A stretch of DNA of 64,000 nucleotides from Omnitrophica WOR_2 bacterium RIFOXYA2_FULL_38_17 (lineage in GTDB: Bacteria > Omnitrophota > Gorgyraeia > Zapsychrales > Zapsychraceae), in assembly GCA_001805965.1 (NCBI GenBank), contig MHHG01000024.1:1384-65383 (forward strand), read 5' to 3'. Positions 4,326 to 64,000 of this stretch are shown piece after piece. A program made the position numbers and the translations under genes. Positions within the stretch are counted from its first letter, which is position 1. Every line of letters starts with the position of its first letter. The notes beneath the pieces were generated by a model. That model had not been told where the DNA came from. It saw only the letters and a list, made by a program, of their open reading frames with translations, and did not search any database.

Positions 4326-6509
4326 ATGAATAGATTTAGAAAGCTTTTAAATATAGTTCTTGGTGCTGTATTTTTTCTTTTGTTGTCAGCGCATGCCTTT
4401 GCTTCGTCCGGGCAAGCAGAAGGCGGAATAGTCGCAATAACCAGCTTGCTCGTGATCCAGTTAAGTGTAATATTATTTGCTGCTTGGGTTGGCAATCTTG
4501 CGTTCGCGAGGATGAAGCTGCCTGCAGTGCTCGGAGAGATCGTTGCCGGAGTTGTTATTGGCCCGTACTTTTTAGGGTCTTTTGGTTTTCCCGGTTTTGA
4601 ACATGGTCTTTTCCCGCCATCAGGTGATTTTCCAGTTTCAATAGAATTGTATAGCCTTGCAACAATAGCATCGATAATCTTATTGTTCTTTGTCGGACTT
4701 GAGACGGATATACAGACCTTTTTAAGATTTTCTTTTGCTGGCTCCATAGTTGGTGTTTTTGGTGTTATTTTTAGTTTTATAGCAGGCGATATTTTAGGTG
4801 TCATGTTAGCCCAAAACCTGATGGGGCAAAATTACAGTTTTACTCACCCGTTCTGTCTTTATCTGGGTGTTTTATCCACAGCTACTTCAGTTGGCATTAC
4901 TGCCCGTATTCTCTCAGAAAAAAGAAAAATGAATTCTCCCGAAGGGGTCACTATTCTAGCCGCAGCAGTTATTGATGATGTGTTGGGCATTATTATCCTC
5001 GCAATAATCCTTGGTATGGTAAAAAGTGGCCACATAGGATGGAAGGAAGTTTCCCTTATCTCCCTTAAAGCTTTTGGTATCTGGCTGGGATTTACCTTGG
5101 TGGGACTGAAATATTCTTTAAAGTTATCTGCTGTTCTTAACAAAATCAAAGACCAAAACACGATTGCTATATTAAGCCTTGGCCTTGCCTTGTTATTGGC
5201 GGGCATATTTGAGCATTTTGGTTTAGCGATGATCATAGGCGCTTATGTTATGGGGCTATCGTTATCTAAGACAGACCTTGCCTTTATTGTCCAAGAGAAG
5301 CTGGAAATGTTGCAGAAATTTTTAGTGCCAATCTTTTTTTGTGTAATGGGCATGCTGGTTAATTTAAAAGAAATGGCGTCATTGCAGATCATTAGTTTTG
5401 GAATGCTTTATGTTGTTATGGCAACTCTTGGCAAGATCATAGGGTGCAGCATTCCGGCATTATTCCTGAATTTTAATTTAAGGGGAGCTTTGCGTATTGG
5501 TGTTGGAATGGTCCCGAGAGGTGAAGTAGCTTTGATCATTGCAGGTATTGGGCTTTCTTCAGGGATCATTGATGATAAAGTTTTTAGCATTGTCATGATA
5601 ATGACATTTGTTACAACATTGATCACTCCTTTGGTCCTCGACAAGATGCTCGATTCAAAAAAGCCTGTTCTAAGGAAAGAGCAGGAGATCAAGGATGAAC
5701 AAAAGACGATAAAATATGAAATGCCAAGCGTGGAAACGGCAGAACTGCTTCTTGCTAAAGTTGTCACTGCATTTGAAAATGAGGGGTTTTTTGTTCACAG
5801 AATGGGTCGTGAAGAAAGGCTGTTTAAGATCAGAAAAGAAAGCGTCTTTATTGTCATGCGATACACTACACAAAGAATGGAATTTGATTGCAGCGAGATG
5901 GATGCGCCATTTATTCACACCTTGTTCTATGAAGTTATTGCGGAACTGGAGCATGCTATGCAGACATTGCAGACGTTAACAGACAAAAGTTCTATTGGTA
6001 AAAAGATATTTGATACACAAAAAATAATTGCAAATATCAATAGTGACAGAAAAAAGAAATTTCAGATCATTTCTTCCAAGGCCCTTAATGTTGATTTACA
6101 GGGCAGGTCAAAAGAAGAGATTCTTGCTGAACTTGTTGAGCTGTTAATAGAGTCAAAGCAATTAGACGCATCACAAAAAGAAGAAGTAGTTAAAGATCTT
6201 CTTAAAAGAGAGTTAATGATGTCGACTGGAATGCAAAATGGCATTGCGCTGCCTCATGCTAAAACAATAGCTGTGGACCATGTTGTTGCTGCAGTAGGCA
6301 TAAGCAAAGAGGGAGTGGATTTTGCATCTCTGGACAAAATACCATCTAAGATCTTTGTTTTAACTTTGGCCTCGAAAGAACACCCTCATGCATATTTACA
6401 GTCCATGTCGGAGATCAGCAGGTTTTTATCGAAAGAAGAGAACAGGGCGAAAATGATAGCGTGTACTACAAGAATACAATTGTTTGACGTGTTAAGCTTT
6501 CATATGTAA
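4326..6509 (+). CDS. Kef/CPA2-type cation:proton antiporter fused to a C-terminal PTS EIIA-Ntr (PtsN-like) domain
   Basis: 727 aa. A signal-like N-terminus is followed by about 12 TM helices of a Na+/H+ (K+/H+) exchanger fold. The C-terminal ~150 aa contain RELMMSTGMQNGIALPHAK, which matches the PtsN active-site region REKMGSTGIGNGIAIPHGK. Confidence 0.8.
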   Translation: MNRFRKLLNIVLGAVFFLLLSAHAFASSGQAEGGIVAITSLLVIQLSVILFAAWVGNLAFARMKLPAVLGEIVAGVVIGPYFLGSFGFPGFEHGLFPPSGDFPVSIELYSLATIASIILLFFVGLETDIQTFLRFSFAGSIVGVFGVIFSFIAGDILGVMLAQNLMGQNYSFTHPFCLYLGVLSTATSVGITARILSEKRKMNSPEGVTILAAAVIDDVLGIIILAIILGMVKSGHIGWKEVSLISLKAFGIWLGFTLVGLKYSLKLSAVLNKIKDQNTIAILSLGLALLLAGIFEHFGLAMIIGAYVMGLSLSKTDLAFIVQEKLEMLQKFLVPIFFCVMGMLVNLKEMASLQIISFGMLYVVMATLGKIIGCSIPALFLNFNLRGALRIGVGMVPRGEVALIIAGIGLSSGIIDDKVFSIVMIMTFVTTLITPLVLDKMLDSKKPVLRKEQEIKDEQKTIKYEMPSVETAELLLAKVVTAFENEGFFVHRMGREERLFKIRKESVFIVMRYTTQRMEFDCSEMDAPFIHTLFYEVIAELEHAMQTLQTLTDKSSIGKKIFDTQKIIANINSDRKKKFQIISSKALNVDLQGRSKEEILAELVELLIESKQLDASQKEEVVKDLLKRELMMSTGMQNGIALPHAKTIAVDHVVAAVGISKEGVDFASLDKIPSKIFVLTLASKEHPHAYLQSMSEISRFLSKEENRAKMIACTTRIQLFDVLSFHM

Positions 6510-6824: not shown

Positions 6825-8168
6825 ATGTTCGGGAAATTATTAACAAAATATGCATCAAGCTTTATTGTCCTGCTGCTTGCTGTGGCAATGGCAATGAGCT
6901 TGTCTTCTACAGCAAGTGCCGCAACTGCGGATGAAGCTATGTTCACAGTAAACAATACCTGGATGCTTGTGGCAACGATACTGGTCTTTATTATGCATCT
7001 TGGTTTTGCCACTCTGGAATCAGGCTTGACAAGATCAAAGAACACGGTAAATATTATTTTTAAGAATGTTTTGATCGTAGCTATAGGGCTTTTAACATAT
7101 GCTATAGCCGGATTCAATTTAATGTATCCGGGTGATGCCTGGATATTGGGGAAGTTCTTTGGCTTTGGGGGTTTTGGTATATCCTCACCGGAAGGTGCTG
7201 CGGGGTTAATAGATTATGCAAATGGCGCTTATACTTATTGGACTGATTTTATTTTTCAGGCAATGTTCGCCGCTACGGCAGCTACAATTGTCTCAGGTGC
7301 GGTCGCTGAAAGAATAAAACTGCACAGCTTTTTACTGTTTTCAGTTATCTTTGTGGGGATAGTTTATCCCTTTGTTGGAAGCTGGAAATGGGGCGGGGGC
7401 TGGTTAGATGCAATGAATTTTTATGATTTTGCCGGGTCTACTTTGGTTCATTCTGTAGGAGGATGGGGGGCGTTGGCAGGTGTTATTGTTTTAGGCCCAA
7501 GAATCGGCAAATATACAAATGGTGCAGTAAAGGCTATTCCTGGCCATAGTTTGCCGTTAGCTGCTATCGGTGTATTCTTATTATGGTTTGGCTGGTTTGG
7601 TTTTAACGGAGGTTCAGTTCTTTCTGCTGATCCAGGAGCTGTTTCTCTTGTATTTGTAACAACTTCTTTGGCAGCAGCGGCAGGGATCATTACATCAATG
7701 GTTACTTCTGAAATAATTCAGAAAAAACCTGACCTTTCTATGGTGTTAAATGGGGCTTTGGCAGGTCTTGTAGGCATTACAGCAGGCGCTGATACCGTGT
7801 CTGTTCTCAGTGCAATTATTATAGGAGGGATCGCAGGGTTCTTGGTAGTTGTTGCTGTAATTATCTTTGACTCAAAATTAAAACTGGATGATCCTGTCGG
7901 GGCATTGTCAGTTCATTTGGTTTGCGGGGTTTGGGGGACTTTGGCTGTAGGCATCTTTAGCATAAATCCAGAGCACTCCTTTATAACTCAGCTGATAGGG
8001 GTAATGGCATATGCTGCAATTTGTTTTCCTGCGGCCTTTTTGATATTTTCAATAATAAAAATAACTATGGGCATTAGAGTTACAGAAGAACAAGAAAACA
8101 GAGGGCTTGACATTTGTGAGCATGGTATGGAATCATATGGAGGGTTTCAGGTTTTTACTAATCAATAA
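6825..8168 (+). CDS. amtB: Ammonium transporter Amt (copy 1)
   Basis: 447 aa with a signal peptide and 11 TM. Conserved Amt/MEP blocks are present (…GAVAERIK…, …WFGWFGFNGGS…, …HLVCGVWGTLAVG…). RBS is GAGGAGGG. Confidence 0.9.
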   Translation: MFGKLLTKYASSFIVLLLAVAMAMSLSSTASAATADEAMFTVNNTWMLVATILVFIMHLGFATLESGLTRSKNTVNIIFKNVLIVAIGLLTYAIAGFNLMYPGDAWILGKFFGFGGFGISSPEGAAGLIDYANGAYTYWTDFIFQAMFAATAATIVSGAVAERIKLHSFLLFSVIFVGIVYPFVGSWKWGGGWLDAMNFYDFAGSTLVHSVGGWGALAGVIVLGPRIGKYTNGAVKAIPGHSLPLAAIGVFLLWFGWFGFNGGSVLSADPGAVSLVFVTTSLAAAAGIITSMVTSEIIQKKPDLSMVLNGALAGLVGITAGADTVSVLSAIIIGGIAGFLVVVAVIIFDSKLKLDDPVGALSVHLVCGVWGTLAVGIFSINPEHSFITQLIGVMAYAAICFPAAFLIFSIIKITMGIRVTEEQENRGLDICEHGMESYGGFQVFTNQ

Positions 8169-8201
8169 TCTTAACAATATTAGATATGGAGGAATAAAAA
8201 A

Positions 8202-8543
8202 ATGAAATTGATCATAGCAATGATACAGCCTCATAAGTTGCCAGATGTAAAAAAAGCTCTGTTTGAGGCAGAGATACATAAAATGACTGTGACTAATGTT
8301 CTTGGCTGCGGTCAGCAAAGGGGGTTCAGTGAGACTTATAGAGGCGTAGTACATGAAGTTAATCTTTTAAAAAAAGTGCGTCTAGAAATTGCTGTAAATG
8401 AGGACTTTGTCGACGACACAATAAAGGCAATTATTAAAGGTGCCAAGACAGGCAATATCGGAGATGGCAAGATCTTCGTCATGGATCTTCAGCGATGCAT
8501 AAGGATAAGGACTGAAGATGAAGGGCACGATGCGATAGGGTAG
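8202..8543 (+). CDS. glnK: PII nitrogen regulatory protein (GlnK-like, copy 1)
   Basis: 113 aa. It has a PII fold signature with a T-loop (...[12 protein letters not shown]...) and the C-terminal ...GDGKIFV...RIRT... block. It lies immediately downstream of amt. Confidence 0.85.
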
Positions 8544-17101: not shown

Positions 17102-19360
17102 ATGCAAAATTCAGATAAAGATAATATAAAGCTGATATGCGATATCAGTGAGCTTAGCAATCTTTTCACAGATTCCAACAGTTTAGAGAATTTTTTATCT
17201 AAAACTGTTGAGATGGTTGCCAGCCATATGAAAGCGGATGTTTGCTCGATCTACCTTTACTCCGATGGGACGCAGGAGTTGATTTTAAAAGCGACAATGG
17301 GATTAAATCAAGGTCTTATCGGGAATGTTAAGATGAATGTTGATGAAGGCTTAACTGGATTAGCTCTAAAAGAGCTTCGGCCGATTTGTGAGAGAAATGC
17401 GAGCAGGAACCCTAATTTTAAATATTTTCCTGATCTAGGTGAAGAAATCTATGAGTCTTTTCTTGCTGTGCCTATATTGCGGGGAACAAATAAAGTAGGA
17501 GTTATGGTAATTCAAAACTCTGAAAAGAATTATTTTAAAGAAGGAGATGTAACTGTTTTACAAGCAATTACTTCTCAGCTTGCAAATACAATAGAGATGG
17601 CAAGGTTTTTACTGTCTCTTGATGAAGATAGACAGCAAAAGAAAGTAATTAAAGAGGAAGGTGACCTGAAATTTGTTAAGGGAAGAGTTGGCTCGCCGGG
17701 CTTTGTTTTTGCTGAAGCAGTTGTTCTTTTAGAGAGTAATTCTTTATGGCTCAATCAAGCAGTAGTTCAAGAGCACACCGTAGATGATTTCTATAAGGCA
17801 TTAAAAGATTCGGAACATCAGCTGGAAGATATGCAGACGCAGATAGAAGAAACATTAGCTGATATTGCTTCGTTCATATTTAACGCTCAAATATTGATGC
17901 TGAAAGATTCTATATTTGTTAACGCTATGGTTGATAAAATTAAAAAAGGCATAAAACCTCATGCTGCAATAATCGAGGTTGCTGGTAATTATTTGAAGAA
18001 ATTTGACAATATTGCAGATGAATATCTGAAAGACAGAAGCCAGGATGTTAAAGATATATGTAGAAGGATTTTAAGTAATCTTATCGGGTTTGATGTTAAT
18101 GCCACAAATTGTGAAGGCCGTATTTTAATTGCTAAGGAACTCTCTGCGGGCGATGTTTTAAAATATTCTTCAGAGAAAGTAAAGGGCATAATCCTTTTAA
18201 GCGGAGGGGTCACTTCGCATGTTTGCATTCTTGCAAGTTCGTTGCAGTTGCCGGTTATAATAGCTGATGAGCCCCGACTGATGTCTATAAGGAACAATAC
18301 TAGAGTTTTGATGGATGCTGAAATTGGGAATTTATATATCAATCCGACAGATGATATTATTGAATCGTTTAGAGAAAAGCAGAAGCTATTGAAAACAAGC
18401 GCTGAAATTAGTAGCGAATTAAAAGAAAAGACTTTTACCGCAGATGGCTCCCAAGTCCATTTGTTGGCAAACATTAATTTATTAGGAGACCTGAAAATAG
18501 CAAAACACTATAAAGCGGAAGGTGTCGGGCTCTACAGGACAGAGTTTCCGTTTATAGTTAGAAAAGATTTTCCTTCGGAGGAAGAGCAGTTAGTTGTCTA
18601 TAAGAAATTATTCGAAGGTATGCCTGGCAAGGAGATGACGATACGCACTCTTGATATAGGAGGAGACAAGGTCTTATCATATTTTCAAGAACATTCACGC
18701 GAGAAAAATCCATTTATGGGCATGAGGTCAGTAAGGTTCTCTTTAAGGCATAAAGATATTTTTGCTCAACAAATAAGGGCTATCTTGAGAGCAAGCGTAG
18801 GTGCTGATGTTAAAATAATGTTCCCTATGATATCTTCTGTAGATGAGTTTGTAGAGGCAAAGCAATTGGTGTTGAATTGTGTTAGTGAGCTTAGAAGTTC
18901 TGGTGCAGAATTTCAGGTAAATCCAACGATAGGCATGATGATAGAAATGCCTTCAGTAATGGAAATTTTAGAAGAACTGGCAAATTATTCTGATTTTTTC
19001 AGCATAGGTACAAATGATTTTGTTCAATATATGCTTGCAGTAGACAGGACAAATGAAAGGGTTGCAGATATGTATTTATCGCACCACCCATCCATTTTGC
19101 GTGCAATTAAAAAAGTAGTGGATGTGTCTGCTAAGTATGGTAAAGAGGTCTCTGTTTGTGGTGAGATGGCACATGAAGAAAAATATATAAGATATTTACT
19201 GGGTATTGGAGTCAGAAGATTTAGCTTGAGCCCTTCCTATATACCGAAAATACAAAGAGCTATCATGAATGTTCAAATAAAAGATGCAGAAGCGTTTGCC
19301 AAAGAAATTCTTTCAATGGATAAATTGACAGACATATCAAAAAAAATTGGAATAAGTTAG
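17102..19360 (+). CDS. ptsP: Phosphoenolpyruvate-protein phosphotransferase PtsP (EI-Ntr, N-terminal GAF domain)
   Basis: 752 aa with a GAF N-terminus. It carries the EI phosphohistidine region GGVTSHVCILASSLQLPVI and the PEP-utilising C-terminal domain (…NDFVQYMLAVDR…). Confidence 0.85.
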   Translation: MQNSDKDNIKLICDISELSNLFTDSNSLENFLSKTVEMVASHMKADVCSIYLYSDGTQELILKATMGLNQGLIGNVKMNVDEGLTGLALKELRPICERNASRNPNFKYFPDLGEEIYESFLAVPILRGTNKVGVMVIQNSEKNYFKEGDVTVLQAITSQLANTIEMARFLLSLDEDRQQKKVIKEEGDLKFVKGRVGSPGFVFAEAVVLLESNSLWLNQAVVQEHTVDDFYKALKDSEHQLEDMQTQIEETLADIASFIFNAQILMLKDSIFVNAMVDKIKKGIKPHAAIIEVAGNYLKKFDNIADEYLKDRSQDVKDICRRILSNLIGFDVNATNCEGRILIAKELSAGDVLKYSSEKVKGIILLSGGVTSHVCILASSLQLPVIIADEPRLMSIRNNTRVLMDAEIGNLYINPTDDIIESFREKQKLLKTSAEISSELKEKTFTADGSQVHLLANINLLGDLKIAKHYKAEGVGLYRTEFPFIVRKDFPSEEEQLVVYKKLFEGMPGKEMTIRTLDIGGDKVLSYFQEHSREKNPFMGMRSVRFSLRHKDIFAQQIRAILRASVGADVKIMFPMISSVDEFVEAKQLVLNCVSELRSSGAEFQVNPTIGMMIEMPSVMEILEELANYSDFFSIGTNDFVQYMLAVDRTNERVADMYLSHHPSILRAIKKVVDVSAKYGKEVSVCGEMAHEEKYIRYLLGIGVRRFSLSPSYIPKIQRAIMNVQIKDAEAFAKEILSMDKLTDISKKIGIS

Positions 19361-55492: not shown

Positions 55493-56338
55493 TTGAAATC
55501 ATTACAAAAGAATAGATCTAGAACGATCAATACAGCTTTTTTATTTCTGATCGTTTTTACTTTTTTATTTTCATCATCAGTAGATGCTGCCAAGCGAAAA
55601 AATAAACACCAGGTAACATGTAAGTCGGTTATTTTTTCTGACAGCACAAAGATGAAGCGGTTATACGGAAAAGGGGTTCATACCCGCATCTTGCCTGCGA
55701 GCACTGCAAAAGTAATGACCGCCCTTCTTGTAATTGAAAAACTTCCTTTAGGCCAATATGTTACCGTTAGCAAAGCCGCAACATTGGTCCAGCCAACAGT
55801 GATAAATCTTAAGCCCGGAGAGAGATATAAGGTAAAGGACCTTCTTTACGCAATACTTATAAAATCAGCAAATGATGCAAGCGTGGTCTTGGCAGAGGCT
55901 GTTTCAGGTTCAGAAGCTAACTTTGTCCAATTGATGAACCAGCGGGCAAAACAACTAGGGGCAAAACATACGAAATTCGCAAATTCAAACGGCCTTCCTT
56001 CAAGGGCGAAACAGTATTCAACGGCATATGATATGTATATGATCTTCAGAAGGGCGTTAAGACATAGTTTTTTCCGGCAAGCAATCACATTTAAAAACAA
56101 AACGATCCAATCAAAGGACGGCAGGCAGGTGCTATTGACGAGCCATAATAAAATACTTTTTAAAGATTGGAAGAAAAAGATTTATGGTAAGACCGGATAT
56201 ACAAGAGCCGCTCAAGCATGTTTTATAGGAACTATAAAGAAGGGCGATAGCGATTTGATCATCGGGGTTTTTGGATGTCCAAAAAGGTGGGAAGATATTA
56301 AGCATGTAGTATCAACATATGGCAAAATACCGCTGTAG
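55493..56338 (+). CDS. D-alanyl-D-alanine carboxypeptidase (PBP5/6-like, S11)
   Basis: 281 aa with a signal peptide, SxxK (PASTAK) and SxN (SANDAS) motifs. Confidence 0.75.
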   Translation: MKSLQKNRSRTINTAFLFLIVFTFLFSSSVDAAKRKNKHQVTCKSVIFSDSTKMKRLYGKGVHTRILPASTAKVMTALLVIEKLPLGQYVTVSKAATLVQPTVINLKPGERYKVKDLLYAILIKSANDASVVLAEAVSGSEANFVQLMNQRAKQLGAKHTKFANSNGLPSRAKQYSTAYDMYMIFRRALRHSFFRQAITFKNKTIQSKDGRQVLLTSHNKILFKDWKKKIYGKTGYTRAAQACFIGTIKKGDSDLIIGVFGCPKRWEDIKHVVSTYGKIPL

Positions 56339-56439
56339 GGATATTGATCGATATTTTTGAAAATTTATAATAGTATTTTTTACTCATTTGTGGTATTCTT
56401 TGAATCAGTAAAAAAAACAAAAAAAGAAAGGATATAGGA

Positions 56440-57321
56440 ATGAAAGATAGAATAACTACCCTGGTTCTAATCATTATGGTCTGCGTTTTTATCGGGCTTA
56501 TCGCTTTAAAAAATAATGGCGGAGGTAAAACTGCCCTAAAAGCTATCTTTGATGAACAATCAAAAATAGTTCAGATGCAAACTAGAATAGAGGCTAAAAT
56601 GGATGCTATGGGAGGAGCTATGTCCAAGAGTAGCGGTATGGGCATGTCTGATATTTCCGGGCTGATCGCAACACAAGTTAGCCTTCAACAGAAAATAGCA
56701 CTTCTTGAGTCCAAAGTTAACGATATAGAAAAAGCTATTAAAGGTGCCGGAGCACAAGCGCAAGAAAGACAGGCTCCACCACCGGAAGACTATACAACTG
56801 TTTACGAAATTCCTGTTGCACATTCAACGGTTGTTGGTGACAAGAACGCTAAAATTACCATCACAGAATTTTTAGATTTTCAATGTCCTTTTTGTGCAAG
56901 GTTTCATACTCCTATAAATGAAGTTCTTGCTAAGTATCCAGGAAAAGTTAATTATATATTGAAGAACTTTCCTTTAGGATTCCACCAAAATGCAAGGACA
57001 GCAGTTAAAGCATCTTTTGCTGCTGGTGAGCAAGGCAAATACGCTGAAATGATAGAACTGCTTCTTGAAAATGGAAATAGCTTAGGAGAAGAAAAATACA
57101 AGGAATTGGCTTCCCAACTTGGCTTGGATGTTGATAAGTTCTTAAAGGATTATAAGGACAAAGATGCTCAATGGGAAGATTATATTAATAAAGATATTGA
57201 GCTTGGGGCAAAAGTCGGCGTAAGAGGTACCCCAACCTTCTATATTAATGGCAGAAAAACACCAGCTAGGGATCTGGCGGGTTATGAGGCTGAGATAAAT
57301 AAAATATTAAGCGGACAATAG
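56440..57321 (+). CDS. DsbA-family thiol:disulfide oxidoreductase with N-terminal TM anchor
   Basis: 293 aa with the CPFC active site in a thioredoxin fold. Confidence 0.75.
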   Translation: MKDRITTLVLIIMVCVFIGLIALKNNGGGKTALKAIFDEQSKIVQMQTRIEAKMDAMGGAMSKSSGMGMSDISGLIATQVSLQQKIALLESKVNDIEKAIKGAGAQAQERQAPPPEDYTTVYEIPVAHSTVVGDKNAKITITEFLDFQCPFCARFHTPINEVLAKYPGKVNYILKNFPLGFHQNARTAVKASFAAGEQGKYAEMIELLLENGNSLGEEKYKELASQLGLDVDKFLKDYKDKDAQWEDYINKDIELGAKVGVRGTPTFYINGRKTPARDLAGYEAEINKILSGQ

Positions 57322-57346
57322 CTTCTTAGTTATGTAGATTATTTTA

Positions 57347-57380
57347 AAGGCCATGTCTCATAAGGGACATGGCCTTTTTT
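57347..57380 (+). terminator. Intrinsic terminator
   Basis: AAGGCCATGTC-tcataag-GACATGGCCTT followed by TTTTTT. Confidence 0.65.
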
Positions 57381-57457
57381 GGGTTATTATATTAAAGATT
57401 ATAGATGGGCATAATATTATGCTTAAATATAGATAATATAGGCATAAAATAAAAAGT

Positions 57458-57486
57458 TTGCATATTTTGCTAAAACATTGTATATT
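57458..57486 (+). promoter_or_regulatory. Sigma-70-like promoter (TTGCAT-17-TATATT)
   Basis: TTGCAT 57458-57463, TATATT 57481-57486. Confidence 0.45.
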
Positions 57487-57587
57487 TCTTGTCTTGTAGG
57501 AAACTATATCGGGCCATGAAATTGGGTTTAATTAAATTTAATTGAAGAAACGGTGATGATTGTATTGCTGTTTTTATTTGGGAGGTA

Positions 57588-57851
57588 ATGATGACAAAAA
57601 AAGGTGGTTTAACAGCTAAGTTTTATAAGGAAACAAAAGGCCTGAAGACATCAGGTGGCCAGAGCGTACTGTCTGGGACTATATTGACAAGAGAAGGCCA
57701 TAAATGGCAGCAAGGCCTTAATGTTAATGGTAAGAAAATGCATTTAACTGCAGGATGTGATGGTGAGGTTTATTTTACAAGAAAGAAAAATCCCTCTCGA
57801 AAAGTAGTCACTTATGTAAATATCAAGCCTTCAGCAGAGGATGTTAAATAA
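57588..57851 (+). CDS. rpmA: Ribosomal protein L27-like (divergent, stand-alone)
   Basis: 87 aa. TKKGG...GGQSVLSGTILTREGHKWQQGLNV...HLTAGCDGEVYF follows the L27 pattern HKKGGGS...GG.V.AG.I..RQRGT...G.NVG.G.DHTLFA...G.V.F. It is preceded by the RBS GGGAGG. Confidence 0.5.
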   Translation: MMTKKGGLTAKFYKETKGLKTSGGQSVLSGTILTREGHKWQQGLNVNGKKMHLTAGCDGEVYFTRKKNPSRKVVTYVNIKPSAEDVK

Positions 57852-58008
57852 TTTTTTATTTAATAGAAAAAATACAGCTCTGAGGGGTTTTTGATTTTAC
57901 GGACAATATTTTAGAACAGCAAAGAGTTCCTGCATTGCTGTAAAAAATATGAGGCTCAGCTAAACTTTTTATCCAAACATTATTTGATTTTAAGAAAAGA
58001 TTTGAACT

Positions 58009-59841
58009 ATGTGCGGAATTATAGGATATATTGGGTCGAAACAAGCAATTCCAGTTTTGCTTGATGGTTTAAAAAAGCTTGAATATAGAGGGTATGATTC
58101 CAGCGGTGTCGGGATAGTTTGTTCCTCTACTCACAAGTTAGATCTTAGAAAGATGCATGGAAAGATACACAACCTTGAAAAGCTTATCAAGGACAAGCCT
58201 GTCGGACAAAGCTCCGTTGGCATTTCACACACCCGCTGGGCAACACATGGCGCCCCAAATAAAGTTAATGCCCATCCCCATTTTGATTGTTCAAAAAAGA
58301 TACTAGTAGTTCATAACGGCATTATTGAGAATTATGAAGACCTAAAGAGAACTCTTATCCAAAAAGGGCACAAATTTGTTTCTGAAACAGACACTGAAGT
58401 TATCTCTCACTTGATAGAACAGAATTATAATGGAGATATTTTTGAGGCAGTTAAAAAAGGCATAAGGCATTTAAGGGGGGCTTTTGCTTTAGGGGTTATT
58501 TGCAGTGATGATCCAGAAAAGCTCGTTGCTGCGCGTGTGGGGTCACCTCTTATTGTTGGCATAGGCAATGGTGAAAATTTTATTGCTTCGGATGTTCCTG
58601 CGATTATTGATAAAACAAAGAAGATCATTTATCTAAAAGATGGAGAGATCGCCACAATCACCAGACAAGAAGTCTTGGTTCATACTTTTGCCGGCAAGCA
58701 GGTAAAGCCGAAGGTTAATATTGTAAAGTTTGATGTTGATGCCGTTAAGAAACAGGGCTATGCGCATTTCATGCTTAAAGAGATACATGAGCAGCCGGAG
58801 GTCTTAGCTAAAATAATCAAGGAGAGAATTCATGGGAACAGGATCTCTCTCGATGGGCTCAAATTAACTGAGAAGCAGTTAAAGGCATTTAAGAACATAT
58901 ATATTGTTGCTTGTGGGACGGCTTATCATGCAGGGCTTGTCGGGAAATATGTGATTGAGAAACTGGCATCAATACCGGTCAGCGTGGATGCTGCTAGCGA
59001 ATTTCGTTATAGGGACCCAATAATTGATAATAAGACCTTGATAATTGCCATAAGCCAATCAGGTGAAACGGCAGATACCTTGGCTGCTGTCAGAGAGGCG
59101 AGGTCAAAAGGGGCAAAGATCATTTCGATCTGCAATGTGGTCGGCTCCTCGCTTTCAAGGGATTCGGACGGTATTTTGTATACGCATGCAGGCCCTGAGA
59201 TCGGGGTGGCTTCAACAAAAGCTTATATTGCTCAAATAGCGATGCTGTATCTTTTGGCCCTGAAATTAAGCAGCCATACGGATAAAATATCAGAAAGAGC
59301 TAGGCTTGAAATAATAAAAGAACTGAAAACGATACCTTCTTTATACAAAGACATCTTAAAGACAAAAGGTTTGATCTCAAAGATCGCAAAGAAGAACTCT
59401 CATTTTGGATGTTTCCTTTTTCTTGGAAGAAATATAAATTATCCTTCGGCGCTTGAAGGGGCTTTAAAGCTTAAAGAGATTTCATACATTCCTGCAGAAG
59501 GTTATGCTGCAGGAGAAATGAAGCATGGTCCCATTGCTTTGATAGATGAATATCGCGCTGTTGTTTGTATCGCGGTGCAATCACCAACATATGAAAAAAT
59601 GATATCTAATATCCAGGAAATACGAGCAAGAAAAGGGAAGATCATTGCAATAGCGACGCAAGGGGACCAAACCATTAAAAAACACTCAAATCATGTTGTT
59701 TATGTTCCAAGGACTTTGGACCTTTTAACGCCTCTGTTAGTTGCCTTACCATTACAGCTGTTCGCATATTATGTTTCTGTAGGATTAGGCTGCGATGTAG
59801 ATCAGCCACGAAACTTAGCTAAATCTGTAACGGTTGAATAA
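58009..59841 (+). CDS. glmS: Glutamine--fructose-6-phosphate aminotransferase
   Basis: 610 aa with an N-terminal MCGIIGY nucleophile, two SIS domains and a conserved C-terminal ...AKSVTVE. Confidence 0.9.
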   Translation: MCGIIGYIGSKQAIPVLLDGLKKLEYRGYDSSGVGIVCSSTHKLDLRKMHGKIHNLEKLIKDKPVGQSSVGISHTRWATHGAPNKVNAHPHFDCSKKILVVHNGIIENYEDLKRTLIQKGHKFVSETDTEVISHLIEQNYNGDIFEAVKKGIRHLRGAFALGVICSDDPEKLVAARVGSPLIVGIGNGENFIASDVPAIIDKTKKIIYLKDGEIATITRQEVLVHTFAGKQVKPKVNIVKFDVDAVKKQGYAHFMLKEIHEQPEVLAKIIKERIHGNRISLDGLKLTEKQLKAFKNIYIVACGTAYHAGLVGKYVIEKLASIPVSVDAASEFRYRDPIIDNKTLIIAISQSGETADTLAAVREARSKGAKIISICNVVGSSLSRDSDGILYTHAGPEIGVASTKAYIAQIAMLYLLALKLSSHTDKISERARLEIIKELKTIPSLYKDILKTKGLISKIAKKNSHFGCFLFLGRNINYPSALEGALKLKEISYIPAEGYAAGEMKHGPIALIDEYRAVVCIAVQSPTYEKMISNIQEIRARKGKIIAIATQGDQTIKKHSNHVVYVPRTLDLLTPLLVALPLQLFAYYVSVGLGCDVDQPRNLAKSVTVE

Positions 59842-59855
59842 TTATCAGCAATATT

Positions 59856-60524
59856 ATGCTTTATATCACGTCTACTCCAATAGGAAACCTTAAAGACATT
59901 ACTCTTCGGGCGATCGAAGTTTTAAAAGAAGTCGATCTTATCGCTGCTGAAGATACCCGCCATACAAGAATATTAACTAAACATTATGATATAGATACAC
60001 CGCTGACGAGTTATTTTGAACATAATAAATTTAAGAAAAGTGAATACCTGCTTAAGGTGTTACAGGAAGGTAAAAGTGTTGCGCTTGTAACTGATGCAGG
60101 TACCCCTGGAATAAGTGATCCTGGCTATCGTCTTATTAAGCTTGCACAGGAAAATAATATTCCTATTACTGTTGTGCCGGGCGCGTGTGCGCTTGTTGCA
60201 GGATTGTCTTTGTCTGGGCTTCCAACAGATAGTTTTGTTTTTGAAGGATTTCTGCCGAACAAATCATCGGCAAGAAGAAAGAAGCTGGAAGCATTGAAAG
60301 ATGAGAAGCGGACTATTATTTTTTATGAATCGCCACATCGGATCACCAAGGCTTTAAAGGATATTGAAGAGGTGTTAGGAAATCCTGTAGTCGCTTGCGC
60401 AAGAGAATTGACAAAGAAATTTGAAGAGCTAAGGAAGGGGACCGCCGCTGAATTGTATGAACATTTTTCCCGAACAAATCCAAAGGGCGAGTTTGTGTTA
60501 ATGTTGAATTTGAAACGGGAGTAG
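59856..60524 (+). CDS. rsmI: 16S rRNA (cytidine1402-2'-O)-methyltransferase
   Basis: 222 aa in the tetrapyrrole-methylase family (MLYITSTPIGNLKDIT...AAEDTR...). Confidence 0.8.
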   Translation: MLYITSTPIGNLKDITLRAIEVLKEVDLIAAEDTRHTRILTKHYDIDTPLTSYFEHNKFKKSEYLLKVLQEGKSVALVTDAGTPGISDPGYRLIKLAQENNIPITVVPGACALVAGLSLSGLPTDSFVFEGFLPNKSSARRKKLEALKDEKRTIIFYESPHRITKALKDIEEVLGNPVVACARELTKKFEELRKGTAAELYEHFSRTNPKGEFVLMLNLKRE

Positions 60525-60540
60525 ATCTTGAACAACAAAA

Positions 60541-60576
60541 AAGCCTCTAACGCATTAGCGCTAGAGGCTTTTTTAT
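60541..60576. terminator. Bidirectional intrinsic terminator between convergent rsmI and the Cys-rich gene
   Basis: AAGCCTCTA-acgcattagcgc-TAGAGGCTT is flanked by an A-run upstream and a T-run downstream. Confidence 0.65.
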
Positions 60577-60586
60577 TATTTTATCT

Positions 60587-63500
60587 TTATTGACAACCTA
60601 TAAGTTTTCCGCAATGGTCGTGAATACAAGGATTTGTGACCCAAAAGGCAGAACAGTTGCCAGGAGTTCCTTCTGCCCCTCTTGGATGCCAAAGTGACCA
60701 TTTTTTATATTGTCCTTCCGTTAATGTCTCACATGTGCCGTAAGTCCCGTCAGGCTGGCATTTATATACGCCATCTTGCTTGTCACAATCACCAAAAGGT
60801 TTACATTTACCTTCAAGATTAGCTACACAGAAACATACTGGAACACCGCCAGACTTAATGTAATCTGTACCACATTCGTTTAGCCTATAAGCACCTGTAT
60901 AGTCATTCCCATCAGGGGCTTGAATGGTGCAAGAGCCCCTATAACTTAGAGGGGTTCCAAATGTTATTTGGAAGGAGCATGTTGGAGACCATTCATGGTT
61001 AACACAAGATCTAATTCCAGGGCAATTATTTATTGGATTCAATTCCCCGTTACGTTTTAGGTATCCATCTTCGCAGGAGTAGTAGTTTGGATCAAAGTCA
61101 GTAGGGCATGGAACAGAAGCATCATTACATGTGAATGAATCCAGGGTTGTATTGAAAGGATGATGCCCGCAGGAACAGGCTCCATATTGGTCACCGCATG
61201 GATCGCATATCTTATAATCATATTTTATATAAGGATCAGAACCATCTCCTGGAATAGGAAGATAGCTGCATGACAGAGTGGTATATGGGCTGCAAAGTGA
61301 ATGGCTGCAAGGACCCCAGTCATTAGTAGCAGCGCAATACTGAGTTCCCCGTCCTAAACAGCTAGGGCTGTAATCACAACTTTGATATGGATTGCTTGGG
61401 CCGGCAACGTAAATACATTGCCCGCAATTGTCTTCACAGCGCGTATAAATTGGACAGTTAGGATTTGTCGGGATCTTTGCCTGCAAGCTTTGAATGACGC
61501 TACAGCTTGTTGGACCTGACGAAAGCCTGGCAATATCTGCAAGAGTTAAGCTCATTCCGCAGCCAGTGGTGCTTCCATAGTTCTGCCAATCGCTCCAGTT
61601 GCAGCAGCTTTCTGCATATGGTGTTGAAGATATCAAAGTTGATGTTGTGCATCCTGAAACAGCTGAAGTCCGGCATTTCACAAGAGTTGTATCCGGATAT
61701 GAGGTGCTTTCACACGACAGACCACAAGATTCGTTGGTTTGGAAATTACAGCAAAGGTCTGAGCTATTTGATGCTATAACAGGGGTTTTATTACAACCAG
61801 GAGTTGGAGAAGTATAACAAGTAACATATTTATTTGCATCATAAAAAGTTGTTCCTCCGTCGCATGATATGCCACAGCCTTCGGTTGTTGTGTAGTCAGG
61901 GCAACAGGTCACATGTCCTATGTCTTTACTGGCTGTTACCGGACAGGTTGGCTTTGCCGGGATCGATACACAAGTAATAAGGTCGGTATCTGCGTATGTT
62001 GTAACATTCCCGCAGTCGATGCCGCAACCTTGAGTTGTTGTATATTCTGCCGGGGCACAACAGGCAGGGTCGTTCGTATCAAGGCGTGTTACTGTCGGGG
62101 CAGCACATCCCGGATTCCCTGTAAGGGAAGTCTTGCAAACGACATAATCGCTTACAAGATAGTCAGAGCCGGCACAATCGATCCCGCAGCCGGCATAAGG
62201 TGCTGCCTCAGTATATTGGCAGTAGGTGCCGTCCCCATCAAATGTCGGACCGTCTACCAGGACATCATCACAATAAGGGTCTGCGGCTCCAGGAGCAGTG
62301 ATTGTTTTTTTCTTGCATTCGGTGTATTCACCTGCTCCATATGTTATTCCATTACAGGTCTGTCCATAGCCTGAACTGTAAACATATCCGCAGTACAGGT
62401 CTGTCTGGTCAGCTGCGTTATCGACGATATCATCGCAATCGGCAACTACAGATGTTTGGCAGGTGACCCTGTAATAGGCTGGATAGTTTGTTCCAGCACA
62501 GGAGAGCCCCCAGCCTGTGTTTGAAGCATAGTTACAACAGGCATTCGCATTAACAACAGGGGATCCTGCCTCAAGCTGGTCTGTACAGCCATAAGTTTTT
62601 AGGGAGGAAGGTGTAACTTCATTACAGTCAACCCACTCATTGGTGCCATAATTTATATCGTTACATTCAAGGCTGCAGCCTTGAATATCATTATACGTGC
62701 AGCATGCCATTGTGCTTGTTGCTGTTTCAATAGGATCGCAACCGGCAACCGCAGAGGTTCGACAGGTTACATATTCTATTGGTGTATGGGCATGTCCGTT
62801 ACAGGTCAACCCGCAGCCAGCGACAGTTGTATAGTTGCAGCATGCAGTTACGCTTGTAGCTGCATTAGCTACTGTAGCTGTAATTCCGTCAGAGCATAAG
62901 GCTACATTTATTGTCGGCCTTTTGCACTTGTAAGCCTGGTTTGGTAAAAATGTCTGGGCACCGCAAGTTCCGCCGCATTGCCAGGTTGCATCTGTTACAA
63001 AAAGACAGCAGTCATTATGGTTTTGAGCAGTGATTATATTTTCAGAGCAGTATCCTGTAGCCGAGATCTGGCAAGTAGTGACTTTAGTGTCAGCAGGATA
63101 TATCGTACTGTTACAGTTTGCGCCACATCCGAGACCTCCTGTTGTATATTGGCAGCATGTGGCTGCATTTACCTCTTGGCTAACAATAACGTCATCGCAG
63201 CCGGCACCTCTCATAGTTGCTGAGACCTTACAGGTAACAAGGTCGCTATAGTTATATGTTCCGTCTCCGCCGCAAGCTTCTTCCAGGGCATTGAACTTGC
63301 CGCCGCAGCCGGATTTAGTTTCAAACCCGCAACAGACATCATCATTAGGGCTTGTTGTTACTATATCAGTACAATTTGCATTGCCTGCCGGCGTGCATAT
63401 GACTTTTGTTCCCAGAGGATATACAATTCCTCTGCCATTACATTGGCCGCCGCATGTAACCACTGGCGCTCCGTAGTTGCAGCATAAATTATTTACATCG

Positions 63501-64000
63501 CTTGTGCTTGTATTTTTTGTTACTGATTTAGATGGGCAGTCTGGATTGTCCGCATCTGTATATTGTACCCAGTTAGTTGAGCTTTCACACTCGTCTCTGG
63601 TTGTGTTGTACCCACAGCAATCATTATGGAAATCTTCTAGGGTTGTAGTTATGTCACAATCAGGATTGGCGACATCTTCTGATACAGTTTGCTTGGTTAC
63701 TCCTATATATGTGGCAGGTATAAGCGGGTCGAATTTATCTATACATGTTGTTGTTTCAGCATAATTGCAGCAGTTGTCTGAGTTTTCTTCTGATACGATC
63801 GTTGGATCACAATCTATAGGGAATGTGTCGGACCAAGTGCATTCTACCCAGGTCCCTCCATCATAAGTCACTCCATCACAAGAATTGTAAATAGTGCCAA
63901 TGCCGTCATCCAAAGCTGTTCCGCAACCTTCGGCATATTTATAGCTGCAGCAATCCGCTTCATTATCAACAGTGACTATCTTATCAGTACATTGTGGATG
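60587..64000 (-). CDS. Giant cysteine-rich tandem-repeat protein (5'-truncated by window edge), likely secreted/surface
   Basis: At least 1137 aa. The track start at 63913 is a TTG, and the reading frame stays open to the window edge with another CC...GCG module. It has at least 16 tandem ~50-aa modules of the type CC-x-Y-x(3-6)-GCG-x(2)-C-x(3-7)-Y-x(4-8)-C-x(2)-S/T-x(4-7)-C. A distinct ~330-aa Cys-rich C-terminal region follows. Confidence 0.7.
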   Translation of the reverse strand, partial: HPQCTDKIVTVDNEADCCSYKYAEGCGTALDDGIGTIYNSCDGVTYDGGTWVECTWSDTFPIDCDPTIVSEENSDNCCNYAETTTCIDKFDPLIPATYIGVTKQTVSEDVANPDCDITTTLEDFHNDCCGYNTTRDECESSTNWVQYTDADNPDCPSKSVTKNTSTSDVNNLCCNYGAPVVTCGGQCNGRGIVYPLGTKVICTPAGNANCTDIVTTSPNDDVCCGFETKSGCGGKFNALEEACGGDGTYNYSDLVTCKVSATMRGAGCDDVIVSQEVNAATCCQYTTGGLGCGANCNSTIYPADTKVTTCQISATGYCSENIITAQNHNDCCLFVTDATWQCGGTCGAQTFLPNQAYKCKRPTINVALCSDGITATVANAATSVTACCNYTTVAGCGLTCNGHAHTPIEYVTCRTSAVAGCDPIETATSTMACCTYNDIQGCSLECNDINYGTNEWVDCNEVTPSSLKTYGCTDQLEAGSPVVNANACCNYASNTGWGLSCAGTNYPAYYRVTCQTSVVADCDDIVDNAADQTDLYCGYVYSSGYGQTCNGITYGAGEYTECKKKTITAPGAADPYCDDVLVDGPTFDGDGTYCQYTEAAPYAGCGIDCAGSDYLVSDYVVCKTSLTGNPGCAAPTVTRLDTNDPACCAPAEYTTTQGCGIDCGNVTTYADTDLITCVSIPAKPTCPVTASKDIGHVTCCPDYTTTEGCGISCDGGTTFYDANKYVTCYTSPTPGCNKTPVIASNSSDLCCNFQTNESCGLSCESTSYPDTTLVKCRTSAVSGCTTSTLISSTPYAESCCNWSDWQNYGSTTGCGMSLTLADIARLSSGPTSCSVIQSLQAKIPTNPNCPIYTRCEDNCGQCIYVAGPSNPYQSCDYSPSCLGRGTQYCAATNDWGPCSHSLCSPYTTLSCSYLPIPGDGSDPYIKYDYKICDPCGDQYGACSCGHHPFNTTLDSFTCNDASVPCPTDFDPNYYSCEDGYLKRNGELNPINNCPGIRSCVNHEWSPTCSFQITFGTPLSYRGSCTIQAPDGNDYTGAYRLNECGTDYIKSGGVPVCFCVANLEGKCKPFGDCDKQDGVYKCQPDGTYGTCETLTEGQYKKWSLWHPRGAEGTPGNCSAFWVTNPCIHDHCGKLIGCQ

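Follow-up and report, generated by a model that had tools for sequence, protein, structure and literature searches.

A cysteine-rich modular protein family of Omnitrophota paired with a fibre gene: a putative surface attachment cassette

The DNA analysed here, a 64,000-nucleotide stretch of contig MHHG01000024.1 (positions 1,384 to 65,383) from Omnitrophica WOR_2 bacterium RIFOXYA2_FULL_38_17, hereafter called the window, carries at its end most of a gene encoding an exported protein built of tandem cysteine (Cys) modules, which defines a new family. This gene is strictly paired with a second one, whose product is by profile comparison homologous to the mosaic adhesive trimer (MAT) fibres of Bdellovibrio bacteriovorus and to phage tail fibres. 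We consider it moderately probable that the exported, disulfide-cross-linked rod and the presumably trimeric fibre constitute a two-protein appendage for surface attachment. Neither the module nor the N-terminal domain (N-domain) nor the two-gene cassette has been described before; a secreted repeat protein accompanied by a tail-fibre-like adhesin is a known general kind of system.

Gene and domain anatomy of the cysteine-rich protein

The minus-strand frame between positions 60587 and 63997 was found to be open for 1136 codons and to run past the window end, as had been proposed in a preliminary description made from the window sequence only. The stop codon (TAA/TAG) occupies positions 60587-60589. 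A 1108-residue open reading frame (ORF) starting at 63913 arose because the ORF lister took the earliest start codon within the sequence analysed. Codons 1-291, coding for the signal peptide, the N-domain and modules 1-3, are located outside the window, past its end. The whole gene was recovered on contig L005 (ENA ERZ27254750) at L005:11002-15285, which belongs to the same organism (99.96% identity over window positions 56143-64000, 7.9 kb) and encodes 1427 residues with 19 modules. The protein is thus large and not giant, as it had been called. Of the features of the new family, those of the modules and the C-terminal domain were read from the window and those of the N-terminus from L005.

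The correctness of the assembly was assessed by comparing the window with L005 (ENA) over positions 60001-64000 and with L016 (JGI) over positions 62267-64000. Each alignment contained a single mismatch and no gaps (99.94-99.98% identity), thus excluding the collapse or expansion of repeats that had been named as a possible refutation. Tandem Repeats Finder detected no DNA-level tandem array in the gene, indicating that the module copies are old and divergent. The local GC enrichment noticed earlier is real (0.454 against about 0.40 for the neighbours) and is located in the second codon position (0.544 against about 0.36), whereas GC at the third codon position (GC3) is 0.361, the same as in the neighbouring genes. 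The excess is therefore an effect of amino-acid composition, and a foreign origin of the gene was ruled out. Neither a terminator nor a promoter was found near its 3' end. That there is no real gene at all, either by assembly collapse or expansion or by a chance frame, has a negligible probability in our judgement: apart from the repetitive nature of the protein nothing speaks for it, while three assemblies agree gap-free, the copies diverge at the DNA level, homologues occur in genomes of 39-65% GC, GC3 is native and the shuffle controls described below were negative.

The full-length L005 protein begins with a Sec-type signal peptide, in which the sole hydrophobic segment of the entire protein comes after a charged stretch and before a cleavage region of small residues (...HPQIAGS/LEW...). 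A conserved W-T/S-D occurs immediately past the predicted cleavage site in all homologues. The protein is thus exported, in agreement with the extracellular nature suggested at first, and the composition of the part encoded in the window also bore out the early description, with 119 Cys (10.5%), T 12.2%, G 9.3%, D 7.7%, S 7.3%, N 6.2%, Y 5.9%, only 1.1% His and very few hydrophobic residues. No sorting motif or barrel was found at the C-terminus (...HDHCGKLIGCQ), a sorting signal having been named among the points to check.

The signal peptide is followed by an N-domain of about 130 residues, the best conserved part of the protein, which contains three copies of P(I/V)R..H(I/L).ELR..(I/V) and a CCGDGxC...CPxDC knot. 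The 19 modules that come next measure 45-60 residues each (about 50) and have the consensus CCNYGTTTLGCGATCDGTTYPDTTLVTCKTPANPGCPDKIVTTENDD. The preliminary description had counted at least 16 six-Cys modules; 16 are indeed present in the window, but all six Cys occur in only 10 of them, three having four Cys, two having five and the last one being atypical. CC pairs recur every 45-60 residues along the window protein, and the vicinal pair with an aromatic residue at +2 (CC.[YFW]) was found 12 times, compared with a mean of 1.06 and a maximum of 7 in 5000 shuffles. When the window protein was scanned with a hidden Markov model (HMM) of the module built from distant homologues only, 12 domains were recognised; 200 shuffled versions of the sequence gave none. 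As anticipated, the C-terminal domain is distinct from the modules: it carries two to three copies of a degenerate unit, C..GC.G...C....W..C ... C..CG..(Y/W)G.C.C, and its Cys pattern is kept even in homologues at 29-31% identity.

Modules 13-15 (window residues 487-645; positions 62063-62539, minus strand) depart from the Cys pattern in complementary ways. The GCG Cys is missing from modules 13 and 14, and one CC Cys from each of modules 14 and 15. This arrangement is kept in the homologues P0001 and P0002 and might be explained by a disulfide between modules or by free thiols.

The pairing of Cys positions was evaluated on 142 modules from eight proteins. All six Cys (C1-C6) were present in 48 modules, and 75 had C1, C2, C3 and C6 only. 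C4 and C5 occurred together in 58 modules, were both missing in 81 and were found singly in just 3 (Fisher p = 2.9e-36), while C2 and C6 were invariant and the loss of C1 was associated with the loss of C3 (p = 4.5e-4). This paired gain and loss is characteristic of three disulfides, of which one is optional, and substantiates the disulfide stabilisation originally put forward.

The AlphaFold2 prediction was based on 39 double modules, non-overlapping and aligned in register, taken from the window protein and P0001-P0004. The resulting model of modules 17-18 showed a mean predicted local distance difference test (pLDDT) value of 89.3 and a predicted template modelling (pTM) score of 0.69, with one two-stranded beta unit per module. 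Searching this model against the PDB and BFVD returned no fold relative, and the CC-module may accordingly be regarded, at the level of a predicted structure, as a candidate new disulfide-rich fold.

These data also bear on the reading of the protein as metal- or redox-active, acting in metallothionein-like sequestration or in extracellular thiol chemistry. The 10% Cys content, the vicinal CC pairs and the CxxC and CxC motifs of the C-terminal domain agree with such a function, which we nevertheless judge very unlikely, since the protein carries a signal peptide, gains and loses Cys in pairs, conserves aromatic residues and Gly between the Cys, contains little His and gave a confident beta-module model without metals.

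Database searches confirmed that the repeat lies outside described domains. For the window protein and its relatives P0001, P0003 and P0004 no family was retrieved from Pfam or NCBIfam at E <= 1, PHROGs contained no match for the Cys-rich protein, and the PDB sequence search for the module and the protein was empty. A Pfam scan of the 39 double modules taken singly hit 15 scattered families, each in one or two members (best E 0.011). The C-terminal domain had no Pfam match, and the N-domain had no consistent family match, its PDB search giving only insignificant TnpB hits (E about 0.07-0.09). Pfam likewise showed no Ig-like, cadherin or Big adhesin repeats, and neither LPXTG nor a beta-barrel was seen.

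Relatives were sought in two large collections. A word-indexed search of 5.8 billion proteins yielded four of them, and an exhaustive profile search of 1.84 billion cluster representatives yielded 10 proteins at E <= 0.001, nine of which are real relatives, so that the family is very small in public data. Two candidates were rejected, namely P0063, a Ser/Pro-rich repeat protein matched in the exhaustive search, and P0055, an unrelated FN3 protein from an alignment-based word-indexed search. The relatives are P0001-P0004 and P0056-P0062, and we define the family by a signal peptide, the N-domain with three HxxELR copies and the CCGDG knot, tandem CCxY...GCG modules and C-terminal units of the form C..CG..WG.C.C. 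Its size ranges from 540 to 1634 residues, with 6-23 modules. Every relative that carries an organism name comes from Omnitrophota, all named loci belonging to metagenome-assembled genomes (MAGs); the three loci among species-representative genomes are all assigned to Candidatus Omnitrophota bacterium, and one partner protein to Candidatus Omnitrophica. No description of the family, its modules or the gene pairing was found in the domain libraries, the PDB, the available text of the Omnitrophota giant-protein papers or the Omnitrophota and Velamenicoccus literature.

The fibre gene and its conserved association with the cysteine-rich gene

The gene preceding the Cys-rich gene on L005 encodes what is hereafter called the partner (Table 1). 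Partner genes comprise 260-370 codons (about 300 residues) and specify a protein with a signal peptide. Its mature N-terminus is invariant, (S/T)TYYPAPFGAYDR(L/I)RLVPR, with the N-motif TYYPAPFGAY, and it further has GIGTxTPxxxLxV repeats and the C-terminus GYYATYAP. When the partner profile (A7) was compared with the PDB, it matched Bd2133 (8OND) with E = 4.8e-16 and also four further MAT chains, Bd3182, Bd1334 and Bd2439 included, all of Bdellovibrio; matches to PHROG tail-fibre families had E values from 2e-8 to 4e-6. Judged from these profiles, the partner is a homologue of the MAT and phage tail fibres. MAT fibres are trimeric and surface-exposed, vary in their tips and serve prey recognition (PMC10769870). 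The TYYPAP N-motif was present in 41 of 50 partner homologues, including those ending in an S74 chaperone domain or in other tips, whereas the YAxYAP end was confined to the short homologues.

In every locus with enough DNA the partner adjoins the Cys-rich gene, usually lying 14-53 nucleotides (nt) upstream on the same strand; co-oriented pairs with such gaps were seen in L001, L002, L005, L006, L008, L011, L012, L013 and L016-L018. The pairing persists across genomes of 39-65% GC. Its specificity was tested on 79 metagenome loci that the partner profile had retrieved, requiring at least 450 nt of downstream DNA for the YAxYAP cases and scoring as a neighbour any ORF that had the N-domain (three HxxELR copies and CCGDG), contained 9-13% Cys and lay within 1 kb of the fibre gene. 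Such a neighbour accompanied all nine YAxYAP fibres and none of the 51 fibres with other ends (9/9 against 0/51; Fisher p = 6.8e-11).

Part of the family occupies a fixed chromosomal slot: in L001, L005, L006 and L008 the pair is inserted between pyrR-pyrB-pyrC and TP-methylase-glmS-L27-dsbA. In L002, L004, L013 and L015 it lies in unrelated neighbourhoods. Comparison with the L006/L010 genome, which has the same gene order, returned identities of 29% for the Cys-rich protein, 39% for the partner and 71% for GlmS, a fast divergence of the pair such as might be expected for exposed proteins. The GlmS match to this Omnitrophota MAG and the shared gene order also place the window in an Omnitrophota genome.

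The synteny is relevant to a different reading, according to which the Cys-rich protein is a stand-alone envelope, S-layer-like or matrix protein and the adjacency of the fibre gene reflects co-regulation with no physical complex. The protein is exported, repetitive and disulfide-rich, and the conserved slot from pyrR-pyrB-pyrC to glmS suggests a core, vertically inherited gene, all of which would suit such a role. However, the pairing survives in unrelated neighbourhoods and in changed orientation, is specific to one fibre C-terminus, and involves a protein in which Pfam recognised neither SLH nor any other wall-binding domain; we therefore regard the stand-alone reading as unlikely. Nothing was obtained in support of the S-layer-like nature initially suggested, given the missing SLH match and the high Cys content, while the adhesin role becomes more specific through the strictly conserved adjoining MAT-like gene, adhesion itself being presumed.

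What follows the N-domain varies among the homologues. Long CC-module arrays characterise the subfamily of the window protein, a 540-residue protein with six modules is encoded in L013, P0061 bears a different six-Cys module, and relatives in L015 have CGDG- and TSP1-like repeats behind the same N-domain.

Several loci deserve mention on their own account. L055 encodes (L055:238-696) a protein of 152 residues made of nothing other than a signal peptide, the N-domain with its three HxxELR copies and the CCGDG knot, located upstream of a TYYPAP fibre gene and hence in reversed order; to judge from this minimal protein, the pairing may have its functional core in the N-domain. Two plus-strand ORFs of L015 (L015:7098-8510 and L015:8556-10175; 470 and 539 residues) encode the same N-domain with CGDG/TSP1-like Cys repeats. 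In the stored gene calls of L015 both are missing, their place being taken by an antisense ORF (7478-8257) and small fragments; gene callers seem to be misled by the unusual composition. What looks like a second kind of fibre and Cys-rich pair is present at L014:6001-9068 (the same as L021), where the slot between pyrR-pyrB-pyrC and TP-methylase-glmS holds a fibre ending in S74. This fibre gene overlaps by 4 nt that of a 440-residue protein with 9% Cys, which has TSP1-like WSxW repeats as well as three copies of a unit of about 60 residues and is without the HxxELR N-domain. Finally, L022, L047, L060, L062, L069, L076 and L079 contain two to four tandem TYYPAP fibre genes with differing C-termini, recalling the 21 MAT paralogues of Bdellovibrio and suggesting tip swapping in these organisms.

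Table 1. Coordinates of the features discussed (window positions unless a contig is named)
Feature	Position	Strand	Remarks
Cys-rich repeat protein gene, 3' four-fifths	60587..64000	minus	codons 292-1427 of 1427 plus stop, from translation
Cys module array (tail of module 3 and modules 4-19)	61424..63997	minus	window residues 1-858; iterated module HMM
Modelled modules 17-18	61640..61948	minus	window residues 684-786
C-terminal Cys-rich domain	60590..61423	minus	window residues 859-1136 (about 280); Cys spacing unlike modules
Partner fibre gene	L005:10001-10948		upstream of Cys-rich gene, 53-nt gap; outside window
DsbA-like thioredoxin-fold gene	56440..57321	plus	Pfam Thioredoxin_4 and DSBA; three genes from Cys-rich gene

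A putative two-protein appendage

The anatomy of the two proteins and their strict association can be combined in a model of the appendage that we favour. Both proteins would be made together and would join end to end as one surface structure. The N-terminal motif TTYYPAPFGAYDRLRLVPR, common to all fibre paralogues, would hold the fibre at the cell surface, and the YAxYAP C-terminus of the paired fibres would dock on the threefold-repeated N-domain of a single Cys-rich chain, the short trimeric fibre serving as a cell-proximal adaptor. The module array might then act as a stiff, disulfide-stapled spacer, with a length set by its 6-23 modules and two or three disulfides in each, and the fast-evolving C-terminal domain might be the part that makes distal contact with a host cell, prey or a particle. 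The data above show the sequence anatomy, the signal peptide, the Cys pairing statistics, a confident module model, the strict gene pairing and the restriction to Omnitrophota; a physical complex, its orientation, surface exposure and an adhesive role are inferred from them.

The same appendage may be imagined with the opposite polarity, the Cys-rich protein being the cell-proximal stalk or fibre anchor and the short fibre the distal tip. The invariant N-terminal domain of MAT fibres is thought to bind an unidentified element of the predator surface (PMC10769870), which agrees with this arrangement, as do the high conservation of the N-domain and an array length that varies like that of a spacer. 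We hold it to be improbable, as the fibre N-motif also occurs in fibres without a Cys-rich neighbour (0/51), the YAxYAP end follows pairing exactly and the paired fibres are without an elaborate tip domain. Since it is the fibre C-terminus that tracks pairing, while the N-terminus is common to all paralogues, the model with a cell-proximal fibre is favoured.

Some observations weigh against the two-protein appendage as drawn here. The disulfide map of the modules is deduced from the statistical co-occurrence of Cys, and the mature protein has an odd total of 139 Cys, so that at least one must be unpaired. Structure prediction, successful for the module, was unusable for the C-terminal domain, whose AlphaFold model from five sequences had a pLDDT of 31.9 and was discarded. 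No recognisable outer-membrane secretion or anchoring signal was found, and surface exposure is accordingly proposed by analogy with the Bdellovibrio fibres. The orientation assigned to the appendage would follow solely from the motifs that co-vary with pairing. Lastly, the fibre and Cys-rich genes are convergent in L053 and L056, showing that an operon is not obligatory.

A bolder version of the two-protein model appears possible but doubtful to us. It would make the CC-module a new fold and the Cys-rich protein the missing second component of the MAT fibres, with a pseudo-threefold N-domain capping three YAxYAP ends, the whole forming a length-tunable host-attachment organelle specific to Omnitrophota. 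If the missing-component reading were true, the same logic could show what Bdellovibrio-type fibres connect to.

Omnitrophota are widespread, ultra-small and uncultivated, and are suspected to live attached to other cells or to prey on them. To our knowledge their large surface ORFs have hardly any annotation, and we know of no attachment machinery described in them. The cassette is compact and strictly conserved, with one gene tied to the experimentally studied prey-recognition fibres of Bdellovibrio and the other built from a domain that has neither a sequence relative nor a detectable fold relative. It provides three candidate new Pfam families (N-domain, CC-module and fibre N-motif), a candidate new disulfide-rich protein fold and concrete targets for antibodies, cryo-electron tomography, heterologous expression and metaproteomics. 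The two L015 genes replaced by an antisense call illustrate that gene callers can miss genes of this kind.

Genomic surroundings and comparison with known systems

Elsewhere the window has the content of an ordinary chromosome, with genes for nitrogen assimilation, pyrimidine and the cell wall and two tRNAs; a V-type ATPase lies near the pair in L001 and L005. The DsbA-like gene keeps its position in L001, L005, L006 and L014. Its product, in which the thioredoxin domain starts only at about residue 129, is 78% identical between the window organism and L001, compared with 88-93% for glmS and pyrR, and thus evolves as fast as the cassette. It is a possible provider of the oxidising activity that the Cys-rich protein would need and, being genomic context, fits the model without counting as support for it. 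Positions 4326-6509 (plus strand) encode a Na+/H+ exchanger fused to a phosphotransferase system (PTS) EIIA-2 domain, and the same fusion occurs at L002:15970-17667, a few genes from the cassette of a distant genome of 65% GC. Together with the GAF-containing phosphoenolpyruvate (PEP)-utilising enzyme at positions 17102-19360, which lies amid genes for glutamine synthetase (GS) type III, glutamate synthase (GOGAT) and NAD synthase, this fusion suggests a nitrogen-PTS regulatory set.

Among known Cys-rich proteins, metallothioneins are small and cytosolic, with CxC/CxxC clusters and few aromatic residues, whereas the protein described here has a signal peptide, 1427 residues, a Tyr, Phe or Trp behind each CC and Cys that co-occur pairwise. 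It also differs from S-layer proteins, which have an SLH or wall-anchoring domain and low Cys, in its 10.5% Cys and missing SLH, and it has none of the Pfam repeat domains, sorting motif or barrel of RTX/type I secretion system (T1SS) giants, autotransporters or LPXTG adhesins. Closer in general design are the EGF-like, TSP1 and granulin modules and the Myxococcus cysteine-rich repeat (DUF4215), which form extracellular rods from modules of 40-55 residues with two to three disulfides. The CC-module is set apart from them by the absence of a consistent profile match and by the spacing of CC with an aromatic residue at +2 followed by GCG.

The proposed end-to-end assembly resembles the T4 long tail fibre (gp34-gp35-gp36-gp37), in which the products of side-by-side genes are joined end to end, the proximal part acting as an adaptor and the distal part binding the receptor; in the model, too, the products of adjoining genes would form one elongated fibre. 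The distal element here is a monomeric-looking disulfide module array instead of a trimeric beta-helix, no phage genes are found nearby and the Cys-rich protein has no PHROGs match.

The giant ORFs reported from the same phylum are likewise poor in annotated domains and have been proposed to mediate cell-cell attachment. They reach tens of thousands of residues, with discoidin, laminin_G_3 and dockerin as the only domains noted in the available text of the two reports (PMC10066038; bioRxiv 10.1101/2023.11.21.568195). That text mentions no Cys-rich proteins, and the family described here is limited to 540-1634 residues and has a module of its own.

The nearest counterpart, as far as the partner and not the Cys-rich protein is concerned, is the MAT fibre of B. 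bacteriovorus (8OND, 8OJN, 8OML, 8OL4; PMC10769870). The partner is much shorter (260-360 residues against about 1000), its paired forms end in the short YAxYAP peptide with no tip domain, and no Cys-rich companion is reported for the Bdellovibrio fibres in PMC10769870, where the word cysteine does not occur. Both fibres nevertheless have a Sec signal peptide and beta-helix GIGTxxPxxxLxV repeats, and the partner family similarly combines one invariant N-terminal part with many alternative C-termini, including S74, and often occurs as several tandem paralogues. Moreover, the organisms that carry them are in both cases thought to live on other cells.

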